From: Escherichia coli 042
Lineage (GTDB): Bacteria; Pseudomonadota; Gammaproteobacteria; Enterobacterales; Enterobacteriaceae
Length of the DNA stretch: 64,000 bases
Reading direction: 5' to 3' (one strand)
Assembly (NCBI RefSeq): GCF_000027125.1
Contig: NC_017626.1
The first letter of the stretch is position 1. Each line of letters begins with the position of its first letter. Position numbers: made by a program. This document shows, piece by piece, positions 12,001 to 18,000 of this stretch.

Positions 12001-15000
12001 GTTGAATCGCAGCGTTTCGATTCATAGAAAGGAACAAAATGTCGAGGATTTGATCGCGGTTGCAAAATTGCCCTGAAACAGGGCAACAGCGGAGTTATGC
12101 GCCCTGCCAGCGGGCAAAGAGATCTTCAGGAAGGGTTATCGTAAACTGGTCAAGAACACGATTAACCGTCTGATTTATCACATCATCAAGCGACTGCGGG
12201 CGATGATAAAACGCCGGAACGGGAGGCATAATCACTGCACCGATTTCTGCCGCCTGGGTCATTAAACGCAGATGGCCTAAGTGCAATGGTGTTTCACGCA
12301 CGCAGAGCACCAGCGGGCGACGCTCTTTCAGCACAACATCTGCCGCACGGGTCAGTAAACCATCAGTATAGCTATGGACAATGCCGGACAGGGTTTTGAT
12401 TGAACAGGGTAAAATCACCATCCCCAGCGTCTGGAAAGAACCAGAAGAGATGCTGGCAGCAATATCGCGCGCATCATGCGTGACATCGGCTAATGCCTGC
12501 ACTTCGCGCAGGGAAAAATCCGTTTCAAGAGATAAGGTCTGGCGCGCTGCCTGGCTCATCACCAGATGCGTTTCAACATCTGCGACATCGCGCAGAACCT
12601 GTAATAAGCGCACGCCATAAATCGCGCCGCTGGCACCGCTGATGCCTACAATAAGTCGTTTCATAAATAGTTGCCCTGTCAGACTTGCTGGCAGACTTTG
12701 CAGGATTTCGGCAGGAGTTGCAAGTCAGGGTGCCAGACCGGCACCCTGAGCGAAGGCATCATCCTTCGTTATGCATTTCGAGATTTTCCACTTCGTTCTG
12801 ACGTTGCACTGCTTTGGCGTCGTCATTACGTAAAGTATCGAGGAAATCGAGGTAGCCCTGATCAACATCTTTGGTGACGTAGACGCCGTTGAACACCGAG
12901 CATTCAAACTGCTGGATATCCGGGTTTTCAGCGCGAACGGCTTCGATCAGATCGTTCAGATCCTGGAAAATCAACCCGTCAGCACCGATGATCTGGCGAA
13001 TTTCATCTACTTCGCGACCGTGAGCAATCAGTTCCGTGGCGCTCGGCATATCAATACCATAAACGTTCGGGAAGCGAATTTCCGGTGCCGCCGAGGCGAG
13101 GTACACTTTCTTCGCTCCGGCTTCGCGTGCCATCTCGATAATCTGCTCAGAAGTGGTGCCACGGACGATGGAGTCGTCGACCAGCAGAACGTTTTTATCG
13201 CGGAACTCGGCGCGGTTGGCGTTCAGTTTACGGCGCACGGACTTACGACGCAGCTGCTGACCCGGCATGATGAAGGTGCGGCCAACATAGCGGTTTTTAA
13301 CGAAGCCCTGACGGTACGGTTTGCCCAGAATACGCGCGATTTCCAGCGCGATATCACAAGAGGTTTCCGGGATCGGAATCACCACGTCGATATCCAGATC
13401 TTCCCATTCGCGGGCAATTTTCTCGCCCAGTTTGGTGCCCATATTCACGCGGGCGCTGTAAACGGAAATTTTGTCGATGAACGAGTCCGGGCGAGCAAAG
13501 TATACATACTCAAACAGGCACGGATTGCTGACCGGATTGTCAGCACATTGACGGGTAAACAACTGCCCTTCTTCAGTGATGTAAATCGCTTCGCCCGGCG
13601 CGACGTCACGCAGGAAATCAAAGCCCAGCGTATCGAGCGCTACGCTTTCGGAAGCGACCATATATTCTGTGCGGTTCTCGTCAATATCACGTTTTCCCAG
13701 TACCAGCGGACGAATCCCGTTTGGATCGCGGAAAGCAACCATACCGTGGCCGATAATCATCGCCACACAGGCATACGCGCCGCGGATTAAGCGGTTTGTA
13801 GCAGCGATGGCGGCGAAAATGTTGTCGGCTTCCAGCGGGTAGTGGCGGAAGTTGTCCAGCTCGCTGGCGAAGATATTAAGCAGAATTTCCGAGTCGGAAG
13901 TGGTGTTGATGTGGCGGCGTTTTTCTTCAAACAGTTTTTTACGCAACTCGTGAGCGTTGGTCAGATTGCCGTTGTGGGCAAGCGTAATGCCATACGGAGA
14001 GTTAACGTAAAACGGCTGCGCTTCAGAGGCGCTGGAGCTACCAGCCGTAGGGTAACGCACATGACCAATGCCCATATTGCCCTGCAAACGCTGCATATGG
14101 CGAGCTTCGAAGACATCGCTCACCAGCCCGTTCGCTTTACGCAAACGGAAGCAGTTATTGGCATCAATGGTGATGATGCCGGCGGCATCCTGACCGCGAT
14201 GCTGAAGCACCGTTAAGGCATCATAAATCGACTGGTTAACCGGCATAACACCGGCGATACCGACAATACCGCACATACGTCTTTTTCCTCGTTAAGCCAC
14301 ATCTCAGAGCACTTACGCTCTGGGCAAGAAACTTGACGAGCTTTGCAGATAATCAAAAAACCATCTGATGATAAAACTGAACTGCGGGATCAGCTGTGAT
14401 TTGCTCCAGTCTTCGCTTTTCGACACCCCGGTAAAGGAGTCGAGAAAGAAGAGAATGGCGGCAACAATCAACACACCGCGCAACGCACCGAAACAGACGC
14501 CCAGCACCCGATCGGTGCCTGACAACCCCGTTTTCTCCACCAGCTGGCCTATCACGAAGTTCACGATAGCACCAACGATCAGGGTAGCGATAAACAGTAC
14601 CGCGATGGCAATCCCATTTCGAACCAGTTCGTCTTCAAAGCCCGTAAACCAGACTGACAGGTAAGTGTAGTAATGACTGGCAACAAAGAAAGCACAACCC
14701 CATGTCACCAGCGATAACGCTTCACGAACAAAGCCGCGGATCAGGCTAACCAGAGAGGAAAAAGCAATCACCGCGATTATGGCGTAATCAATCCAGACCA
14801 TATGTGTCCCACGATTTTACGCCCTGTCATCCTGTTCGGGGCGCATTCTAACAGAAAAAGAAAACGTTTGCGTAGGGATTTCCTTCCCACGCATCAATAA
14901 AAATGGCGCTGAAAAAATATTCAACGCCATCGACTTTTTATGCCTTTGCGGCATCGTGCAATGCGTGTCGGATGCGGCGTGAACGCCTTATCCGACCTAC

Positions 15001-18000
15001 GGTTCTACCCCTGCGCAGGCCTGATAAGACGCGCCAGCGTCGCATCAGGCAACGACTGTCGGATGCGGCGTGAACGCCTTATCCGACCTACGGTTCTACC
15101 CCTGCGTAGGCCTGATAAGACGCGCCAGCGTCGCATCAGGCAACGACTGTCGGATGCGGCATATACGCCTTATCCGACCTACGGTTCTACCCCTGCGCAG
15201 GCCTGATAAGACGCGCCAGCGTCGCATCAGGCAACGACTGTCGGATGCGGCATATACGCCTTATCCGACCTACGGTTCTACCCCTGCGTAGGCCTGATAA
15301 GACGCGCCAGCGTCGCATCAGGCAACGACTGTCGGATGCGGCGTAAACGCCTTATCCGACCTACGGTTCTACTCCTGCGCAGGCCTGATAAGACGTGCCA
15401 TCGTCGCATCAGGCAAGACCGTATTAATTCGGCGTATAGCCCATTACCACGCCACTTAAGCCAGAAAGCTGCTTGAGCTCACTCAGCGATCCTTTCAGTT
15501 TCTCTTTGGAAGCATCAGGCCCAACCAGAATACGGGTAATTTTACCCTGCACTGGCGTGGATGGCGACGTATAAACCCGATAACCGGCACCGCGCAGCTT
15601 ACCGACAATCTCATTCACTTTATCGGCATTTTTCAGCGCGCCCAGTTGCACAACATAGGCTTTACCCGTTGGCGCTGCTTTTTCTTCCATGACCGGCTTC
15701 GGTTCTGGCTTCGGCGCAGGTGGTACTTCAACCTTCGGTTTAGGCGGCTCCACCGGTTTCGGCTTCGGTGGGGCGACCGGTGCAGGTTCCGGTTCAAACT
15801 CGGTGTTATTGGCTGCAATAGTGGCCGGATCGAGCGACGGTGCTGCGGCATCACCAGCCCGCACCTCTTCCGCTGCGCCTTCCGGCGGCTGCGTCGGCAG
15901 CGCCTGGGTGGCGGCTGGCATCATATCAGGCTCATCGCGATCGCCCGCTTTTGGCACCAGCGGGATAGCCGCGAACTCATCCTGATAATGTTTTTTCTGC
16001 CCGTCCAGCAGCCCTGGAAGTACAATCACCCCCAGCGCCACCAGCACGATCGTGCCCACTAACCGATTCTGAAACTTACTTGCCACCGCTTCTCCTCGCG
16101 TCAATCACTTCCATGACATGTGCGACCGTGTGGAACGAACCACACACCAGCACGGTATCTTCCGCTTTAGCGTCCGCCATTGCGGCATCCCATGCCTGCG
16201 CAACGCTATCAAATGATTTGCCGTTTCCCAAATGCTCAAGCAGTTGTTCTGCCGTGGCACCGCGCGGCCCTTCCAGTGGCGCACAATACCAGTCATCAAC
16301 CACGCTTTTCAACCAGGCCAGAGTTCCGGCAATATCTTTATCATGTAGCATACCGATAACCGCCAGCACGCGCCCGTTTTTCGGTAGCGCTTTCATACGC
16401 CCGGTGAGATATTCCGCCGCATGTGGATTATGCGCGACATCAAAAATAACGCGTGGCGACTCGCTCACAATCTGGAAACGTCCCGGCAAAATTGCGCTGG
16501 CAATCCCGTCGCGAATGGCATTTTCACTGACCTCCAGCCCGCTGGCACGCAGTGCCGCCAGCGCTGTTGCGGCATTCGGTTGCGGGACAAGCGGCAACGG
16601 CAGATTTTCCAGCGTGCCGTGAGCATCGCTAAACGTCCAGTCATGATCGGTGACGGAATAGTTCCACTCAACGCCCCGACGTTGTAACAGTGCACCTTTC
16701 TCCTGCGCCACATCAGCAATGGTAGAAGGCATTTCCGGCTCACCGACAATTGCCGGTTTTTCGCTGCGGAAGATGCCTGCTTTCTCGCGACCAATACTTT
16801 CGCGATCTGGCCCCAGCCAGTCGGTATGATCCAGCGCAATGCTGGTTACTATCGCGACATCAGCATCGACAATATTGGTTGCGTCCAGACGACCGCCCAG
16901 CCCTACTTCCAGAATCACCACGTCAAGTTGTGCCTGTTTGAACAGCCACAACGCCGACAGCGTACCGTACTCGAAATAGGTCAGGGAAATATCACCGCGT
17001 GCCGATTCAATCTCCGCAAAAGAGGCGGTGTGGGCCGATTCCGGCAATTCCTGGCCCTGCACACGTACGCGCTCGGTATAACGCACCAGATGCGGCGAGC
17101 TGTAGACGCCCACTTTGTACCCTGCCGCCATCAGAATCGACTCCAGCGTACGGCAGGTGGTGCCTTTGCCATTCGTACCCGCAACGGTAAACACAAATGG
17201 CGCTGGTTTCAGAACGCCAAGACGCGCCGCGACCTGGCTCACGCGCTCAAGGCCGAGATCGATAGTTTTACTGTGCAGGTTTTCCAGATAAGAAAGCCAC
17301 GAAGCCAGAGGCGACGCGGCTTGAGGAGTGCGTTTGATAATCATGGTATCCGCTGATTCGTTACGGTGAGAATAGCAAAAGGGCAGAGCCAGTGGCCCTG
17401 CCCTTATCAGTTATCAGGCCTCAGGTTCCTGATCAGGTACCGGGGGTACCACTACGCCTTCACGCGGCGCTTCAGGATTCGGCGCTGGCAGATTCATCAA
17501 CTTCGCCAGAATGCTCGCCAGTTTCAGGCGCATTTCCGGACGACGGACGATCATGTCGATGGCGCCTTTCTCGATCAGGAATTCACTGCGCTGGAATCCT
17601 GGCGGCAGTTTTTCGCGAACGGTCTGTTCGATAACACGCGGACCGGCAAAGCCGATTAACGCTTTCGGTTCAGCGATGTTGAGATCGCCCAGCATGGCGA
17701 AACTTGCAGAAACACCGCCCATGGTCGGGTCGGTCAGCACGGAGATGTACGGCAAGCCGCGCTCCTGCATTTTTGCCAGCGCCGCAGAGGTTTTCGCCAT
17801 CTGCATCAGCGACATCAGTGCTTCCTGCATACGTGCGCCACCAGAGGCGGAGAAGCAGATCAGTGGGCAGTTATCTTCCAGCGCCTGCTCAACGGCACGC
17901 ACGAAACGTGCACCTACCACAGACCCCATGGAACCGCCCATAAAGGCGAACTCGAATGCCGCAGCGACAACTGGCATTCCATACAGGGTGCCTTTCATCA

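Follow-up and report, generated by a model that had tools for sequence, protein, structure and literature searches.

A five-unit BIME-2 array in the 3' untranslated region of dedD in Escherichia coli 042

The window analysed here, a stretch of 64,000 nucleotides of Escherichia coli 042 DNA (assembly GCF_000027125.1, contig NC_017626.1), carries an array of repetitive extragenic palindromic (REP) sequences between cvpA and the cell-division gene dedD. We show that this array is a bacterial interspersed mosaic element of the second type (BIME-2), built of five tandem units, i.e. ten imperfect palindromes, and located in the 3' untranslated region (3'UTR) of dedD. It is an element of an already known and ordinary type, and the locus has been catalogued as a BIME-2 in strain K-12. 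The data are very probably best explained jointly, by a BIME-2 in the dedD 3'UTR that gains and loses whole units and that would have the gyrase-related and RNA-related roles inferred from other BIME-2.

Tandem Repeats Finder was used to call the array, and consensus patterns for the y and z2 REPs, together with RNA folding, were used for the palindromes. The former program reported one array at 14966..15416, with a period of 91 bp, 5.0 copies, 96% matches, no indels and a score of 825, in line with the original prediction of about five units of roughly 91 bp between cvpA and dedD. The limits given in that prediction, 14940-15418, hold at the end to within 2 nt but not at the start, where 26 nt of unique flank had been included. 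This unique flank before the array contains a small conserved hairpin, ATGCCTTTGCGGCAT, at 14940..14954. Read on the plus strand, the 91-bp unit consists of a y REP (GTCGGATGCGGCG-loop-CGCCTTATCCGACCTAC), a 13-nt tail-to-tail linker, an inverted z2 REP (a GTAG or GCAG foot plus GGCCTGATAAGACGCGCCAGCGTCGCATCAGGC) and a 7-nt head-to-head linker. The linkers had been described as short and variable, but they repeat with the unit: the tail-to-tail linker is GGTTCTACCCCTG in units 1-4 and has one substitution in unit 5, and the head-to-head linker is AACGACT at all four internal junctions. The five units, once aligned on their period, show differences at few positions.

The y consensus, with up to three mismatches allowed, matched the array five times on the plus strand (at 14967, 15058, 15149, 15240 and 15331, with 2-3 mismatches), and the z2 consensus matched it five times on the minus strand (at 15015, 15106, 15197, 15288 and 15379, with 0-2 mismatches). 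The two sets of matches strictly alternate, which gives ten REPs in opposite orientations. Neither pattern found a match in 100 dinucleotide-preserving shuffles of the window. A search for inverted repeats with a 9-nt exact seed found nothing, because mismatches interrupt the REP stems. The array and its ten palindromes are the following.

14966..15416, no strand: BIME-2 array of five tandem 91-bp units (Tandem Repeats Finder, register print, linker dissection)
14967..15000, plus strand: y REP of unit 1, loop GTGAAC, with GTAG and hairpin on the minus strand (2 mismatches; RNA hairpin of -17.4 kcal/mol)
15015..15050, minus strand: z2 REP of unit 1, GTAG foot mutated to GCAG in the plus-strand reading (1 mismatch)
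15058..15091, plus strand: y REP of unit 2, loop GTGAAC (y consensus match)
15106..15141, minus strand: z2 REP of unit 2, GTAG intact (0 mismatches)
15149..15182, plus strand: y REP of unit 3, variant loop ATATAC (3 mismatches; RNA hairpin of -15.6 kcal/mol)
15197..15232, minus strand: z2 REP of unit 3, GCAG (z2 consensus match; RNA hairpin of -21.4 kcal/mol)
15240..15273, plus strand: y REP of unit 4, variant loop ATATAC (y consensus match)
15288..15323, minus strand: z2 REP of unit 4, GTAG intact (z2 consensus match; RNA hairpin of -21.4 kcal/mol)
15331..15364, plus strand: y REP of unit 5, loop GTAAAC, shared with the one unit of K-12 (y consensus match, folding, allele comparison)
15379..15414, minus strand: z2 REP of unit 5, GCAG, adjoining dedD (z2 consensus match; RNA hairpin of -17.9 kcal/mol)

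BIME-2 are defined by z2 and y REPs in multiple tandem copies with a short linker (PMC3333891). The array has y and z2 REPs in alternating orientation, short linkers, tandem copies whose number varies between strains, and an extragenic site. BIME-1 (RIP/RIB) resemble it in having two inverted REPs, one of them of the y type, but they join y to z1 across a long L linker, often with a site for integration host factor (IHF), and are single-copy (PMC3333891), whereas the array has z2 REPs, 13-nt and 7-nt linkers and tandem copies. Of the two binding partners that had been named for BIMEs, gyrase stands for the array, as a documented partner of BIME-2, and IHF does not: IHF binding is a property of the BIME-1 L linker (PMC3333891), and the IHF consensus WATCAANNNNTTR had no match in the intergenic region 14802..15423.

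Two other interpretations of the repeat itself had to be considered. Short palindromic repeats at regular spacing in a non-coding stretch are also what a CRISPR array, or a degenerate relic of one, would look like. In this case, however, the full 91-bp unit repeats at 96% identity, leaving no unique spacers, the palindromes belong to the REP family and fit its y and z2 consensus sequences, there is no leader, and no cas genes were found in the window, either in the annotation of collinear genomes or by family scans. With both unique spacers and cas genes missing, the CRISPR interpretation is vanishingly improbable and was rejected, as it had been from the start. Also, three overlapping open reading frames (ORFs) of 56-88 aa run across the array on the plus strand (14903..15073, 14940..15206 and 15070..15291) and could be taken to encode small repeat proteins. 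This is extremely improbable, since the conservation of the repeat tracks hairpin pairing rather than codons, no coding sequence (CDS) is annotated at the array in any RefSeq record examined, and whole units are gained and lost between strains. The protein-coding interpretation was therefore excluded, and the ORFs are regarded as by-products of the repeat.

From unit 1 to unit 5, the y loops read GTGAAC, GTGAAC, ATATAC, ATATAC and GTAAAC, and the z2 feet read GCAG, GTAG, GCAG, GTAG and GCAG. Since no adjacent units or two-unit blocks of the array are identical, simple tandem duplication was rejected as the source of this order. The arrangement of the variants appears to imply parallel mutation, gene conversion or recombination between alleles.

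The position of the array relative to its neighbours is defined by the following features.

15424..16086, minus strand: dedD CDS, with the stop codon TAA at 15426..15424 (NCBIfam NF008641 equivalog, E 6e-116; translation)
14892..14931, minus strand: intrinsic terminator-like 12-pair hairpin (14931..14902) followed by TTTATT (-18.0 kcal/mol, z -6.1)
14858..14873, minus strand: PurR-box-like sequence ACGCAAACGTTTTCTT upstream of cvpA-purF (read from the sequence)
14313..14801, minus strand: cvpA CDS, the downstream neighbour (NCBIfam NF008100 equivalog, E 9e-102; translation; RefSeq records of matching genomes)

In the RefSeq records of matching genomes, dedD is likewise a 663-nt CDS; beyond the two genes lie purF and folC (NCBIfam equivalogs and the same RefSeq records). 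The whole array is intergenic, with the stop codon of dedD on one side and the start of cvpA at 14801 on the other, and its first hairpin base, 15414, is separated from the stop codon by a spacer of 9 nt. In the dedD sense, the terminator hairpin (GATGGCGTTGAA...TTCAGCGCCATT with TTTATT) is found 34 nt past the array, and cvpA starts 100 nt after this hairpin. Given that both genes are on the minus strand, that dedD is the upstream one and that a terminator comes after the array, the array belongs to the dedD 3'UTR and not to the cvpA promoter region. The PurR-box-like sequence is about 30 nt past the terminator and is invariant in all intergenic regions displayed; we take it to be the PurR operator of the cvpA-purF-ubiX operon, marking the start of the next transcription unit. 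A codon-degenerate cvpA-start pattern brought up 120 species-representative genomes; both dedD and cvpA were found in 113 of these, and the terminator motif was present in 84 of these 113 intergenic regions (Enterobacteriaceae). Between the dedD stop codon and the terminator lie 25 to 493 nt, and the window, with about 490 nt, is at the top of this range. The terminator hairpin and the PurR-box-like sequence are near-invariant across Enterobacteriaceae, and the stretch from dedD to the terminator is free to vary.

The RNA folding that had been suggested as a check found the REP hairpins to be stable: individual REPs fold at -15.6 to -21.4 kcal/mol (z -4 to -5.5), and the whole region has a z of -11 against shuffles. 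All five y REPs have an internal unpaired bulge and GTAG (on the minus strand). In comparison with the elements of other Escherichia and of Citrobacter species at the same site and with REP325, the K-12 array between yjdM and yjdN, compensatory changes are seen at two of the 11 pairs of the y stem. Local hairpins dominate when REP pairs are folded alone. A global minimum-free-energy fold that paired distant y REPs was treated as an artefact of co-folding equivalent palindromes.

Four y-hairpin and z2-hairpin pairs of the array, each with the short linker between its two hairpins, are matched by the Rfam family of naRNA4, the RNA of REP325.

15018-15088, 15109-15179, 15200-15270 and 15291-15361, minus strand: four y-hairpin plus z2-hairpin pairs, naRNA4 (RF02564; Rfam)

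All four matches are on the dedD sense strand and, at 77.2-83.0 bits, exceed the gathering cutoff of 59.5, so that an Rfam-based pipeline would call four naRNA4 small RNA (sRNA) genes here. If they were such genes, their products would bind HU, bridge cruciform REP DNA and condense the chromosome; nucleoid condensation dependent on HU and naRNA4, as well as REP-REP contacts, has been reported (PMC4550694). However, the Rfam model is in effect a y plus z2 REP pair and is matched by any head-to-head pair of a BIME-2, and nothing at the array points to processing or to a promoter of its own. Moreover, a 2026 preprint, whose authors include the senior author of the original report, found no stable complex of HU, cruciform and naRNA4 and no REP-REP contacts by Hi-C, and nucleoid volume did not respond to deleting or overexpressing REP325 (bioRxiv 10.64898/2026.03.23.713779). 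Four naRNA4-like genes are thus very unlikely, and the RF02564 matches show a BIME-2 nature shared with REP325 but not a functional small RNA at this locus. The four Rfam sRNA calls at 15018..15361 (minus strand) are best viewed as an artefact of the family definition.

REP325 is among the closest known counterparts of the array. Both consist of tandem y and z2 REPs located between genes of the same direction, with equal orientation to the upstream gene, and both score above the RF02564 cutoff. They differ in architecture, as REP325 has 5.8 units of 100 bp with linkers of 11 and 20 nt, compared to 91 bp and linkers of 13 and 7 nt in the array. They also differ in context: REP325 lies within an operon and is followed by neither a terminator nor a promoter, whereas both a terminator and the promoter of the purF operon come after the array.

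To survey the alleles of the locus, 5,426 complete E. coli genomes were queried. Unit number was taken from the match spans of 39 evenly spaced chromosomes, and of the best 60 matches, and from one junction-specific query, and representative alleles were read directly. The locus is present in 5,425 of the 5,426 genomes, the closest being that of strain GN25 (99.9% over a 1.4-kb query spanning the locus). The differences between the match spans and the query are multiples of 91 bp, implying 0, 1, about 2, 3, 4 and 5 units, and the expectation that copy number varies between strains was thus borne out. One unit is found in 25 of the 39 sampled chromosomes (~64%), four units in six and three units in four; five units, two units, a 71-bp remnant and no unit at all account for one chromosome each. 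At least 51 genomes, among the best 60 matches listed, have five units. The window carries a five-unit allele of a length-polymorphic repeat, and such alleles are rare, about 1%. The alleles that were read are listed below.

0 units: E26 (603..769 of the extracted locus), intergenic region of 167 bp
Single fused 71-bp remnant: 4973, intergenic region of 235 bp
1 unit: K-12 MG1655, intergenic region of 258 bp
2 units, one of them lacking 20 bp internally: Rb-50, intergenic region of 329 bp
3 units: S12, intergenic region of 440 bp
4 units: O157:H7 MB9-1 and LF82, intergenic region of 531 bp
5 units, one of them lacking 13 bp: 10035776-3, intergenic region of 609 bp
5 units: the window and strains 135, 100181 and A30, intergenic region of 622 bp

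The K-12 BIME-2 at cvpA-dedD corresponds to the array in locus, flanks, y and z2 REPs and linkers, with one unit (258 bp) as opposed to five (622 bp), two of which have the ATATAC y loop. Compared with unit 5 of the window, the one unit of K-12 has four differing positions; the unit next to dedD in the O157 and 100181 alleles has exactly its sequence. From allele to allele, units mostly correspond by position, which fits a stable scaffold to which whole units are added and from which they are lost. By a comparison of their units, the five-unit alleles arose independently at least three times. The ATATAC y loops of units 3 and 4 are common to the window and strain 135 and are found in none of the other alleles examined; the 100181 allele consists of the four units of the O157 allele and one more, which exactly duplicates the second of them; and the extra unit of the A30 allele is of another kind. 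A 45-nt query that matches only the contiguous empty junction identified the clean 0-unit allele in exactly 136 of the 5,426 genomes (2.5%). In this allele, 91 bp are gone between the direct repeats TTGCCTGATGC and TTGCCCGATGC. Because other Escherichia species are occupied at the site, the 0-unit allele arose secondarily, by loss of exactly 91 bp, and is not an ancestral empty site.

Among these other species, two 91-bp units occupy the cvpA-dedD site in Escherichia albertii, Escherichia whittamii and the E69 lineage, and one does in Escherichia sp. MOD1-EC7003. The site was therefore occupied before E. coli diverged, and a BIME was present there in the common ancestor of the sampled Escherichia species. 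Citrobacter species have their own pair of a z2-like and a y-like REP at this site. In the slot between dedD and the terminator, Pseudocitrobacter faecalis has an unrelated palindromic array (7.2 x 59 bp, with a unit of the CCCTCTCCC...GGGAGAGGG type), Enterobacter sp. ENT03 has another unrelated palindromic array (3.4 x 43 bp), and Trabulsiella and Yokenella have nothing (153 bp). This slot has been colonised repeatedly by different repeat families, which could, with low probability, reflect selection for a structured 3'UTR rather than chance insertion.

By analogy with other BIME-2, the array is likely to act as a gyrase target, as a stabiliser of the mRNA 3' end and as a transcription attenuator. 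At the DNA level, the y REPs would be preferred sites of gyrase binding and cleavage, making the array a transcription-independent gyrase site and a topological buffer, and five y REPs would be expected to form a stronger or a multiple site. In K-12 W3110, Topo-Seq showed an excess of gyrase cleavage sites in BIME-2 and no such excess in BIME-1, with y REPs cut more often than z2 REPs and cleavage increased when transcription was blocked (PMC6379681). The cvpA-dedD BIME-2 of W3110 (83 bp) is itself listed with two sites for rifampicin plus ciprofloxacin and one for microcin B17 (Table DS3 of PMC6379681), and longer arrays have more gyrase sites, e.g. 11 in the 654-bp eco-mqo array (PMC6379681). 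The large K-12 BIME-2 clusters eco-mqo (654 bp), sucB-sucC, araD-araA and nrdA-nrdB are multi-unit intergenic y/z2 elements like the array, and gyrase cuts in them rise with the number of y REPs; they differ from it in locus and linker variants.

At the RNA level, the ten hairpins could block 3'-to-5' exonucleases and so protect the folC-dedD mRNA. They could also slow or partly terminate RNA polymerase, in which case fewer polymerases would reach the terminator and the purF operon. REP325 makes the mRNA of yjdM, its upstream gene, more stable, lowers downstream gene expression about ten-fold and gives rise to a ladder of RNAs that end in hairpins; its partial Rho dependence is seen with the full 12-hairpin array only and not with 2-4 hairpins (bioRxiv 10.64898/2026.03.23.713779). 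In addition, the first hairpin, at 9 nt from the stop codon, may be near enough to disturb termination of DedD translation. REPs at most 15 nt from a stop codon lower translation of the upstream gene, according to the summary of Liang et al. 2015 in PMC12306157. The 9-nt spacing fits this rule in every allele with at least one unit. The RepRanger supplements do not mention dedD, and literature searches for dedD or cvpA with REP, or with folC and operon, returned nothing useful.

Unit number has most likely been changed by replication slippage or by unequal homologous recombination between units, possibly aided by the REP-associated transposase TnpA-REP. Of the REPs in the array, all five y REPs and two z2 REPs carry the GTAG of TnpA-REP substrates; the annotated counterpart of the window showed no gene for TnpA-REP.

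Several observations weigh against this set of roles and mechanisms. The functional statements are all carried over from K-12 or from REP325, and REPs have been found to cause no uniform change of mRNA half-life (bioRxiv 10.64898/2026.03.23.713779). An attenuator may be redundant, given the strong intrinsic terminator after the array, and the sense RNA is G-rich (C/G 0.83), unlike typical Rho loading sites. The z2 REPs of units 1, 3 and 5 have GCAG instead of the GTAG required by TnpA-REP. Finally, all unit numbers from 0 to 5 are still found in nature, so that selection on unit number is weak, if there is any.

Some of these points would also be accounted for by a repeat without function, either selfish or neutral, produced by REP proliferation and slippage, whose presence and unit number have no effect that matters to the cell. 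Such a repeat would explain why 0- to 5-unit alleles and internally deleted units all occur in healthy isolates, why five-unit alleles arose more than once while 136 genomes lost the element cleanly, why other genera have unrelated repeats or nothing in the slot, and why a terminator is already present after the array. On the other hand, gyrase cleavage has been mapped to the single unit of K-12, Escherichia species have retained the element at the site, with compensatory changes preserving its hairpins, and deletion of the comparable REP325 array alters the expression of both neighbours. Taken as an account of the element as a whole, a functionless repeat is a serious candidate but the less probable one; it is compatible with the BIME-2 identity of the array and is plausible for the expansion itself. 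The opposite proposal, that unit number is a heritable dial in which only long alleles gain partial Rho-dependent attenuation and multiple gyrase sites, is doubtful. If it were true, lineages with 0, 1 and 5 units would differ in DedD level, in local supercoiling and in the insulation of the purine-regulated cvpA-purF-ubiX operon from folC-dedD read-through.

The significance of a BIME-2 at this position is mainly one of annotation, as the array should be labelled as a BIME-2/REP array and not as CRISPR, small ORFs or four naRNA4 sRNA genes. The alleles with 0-5 units and near-identical flanks also form a natural series that could be used to study the effect of REP dosage on 3'UTR stability, read-through and gyrase cleavage, and the 91-bp length polymorphism is a simple marker for strain typing.

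Other REPs are found elsewhere in the window. A pair of y and z2 REPs with a 9-nt linker is located at 28191..28270, between the counterparts of yfcL and mnmC, and its y REP is identical to that of unit 1 of the array. At 24745..24780, between fabB and yfcJ, there is a lone REP that combines a y-like stem with a z2-like centre, and a lone z2 REP at 33571..33606 adjoins smrB.

The 64-kb window is collinear with strain GN25 from pta to argW and then continues with an upaE-like autotransporter gene, an IS1 fragment, oxc, frc and yfdX. The tRNA-Arg gene argW (50933..51004) is directly followed by an ORF of 2,036 aa for the UpaE-like autotransporter (52023..58133, minus strand). GN25 has an intS prophage at argW, and the window strain is without that prophage. 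Within 58181..60463 (minus strand), a 125-aa fragment of the IS1 transposase, covering profile positions 100-199 of 199, abuts the ORF for oxalyl-CoA decarboxylase. The latter aligns to positions 8-523 of a 574-position model, with some 50 C-terminal residues apparently missing, an arrangement suggestive of a truncation or deletion, mediated by IS1, between upaE and oxc.

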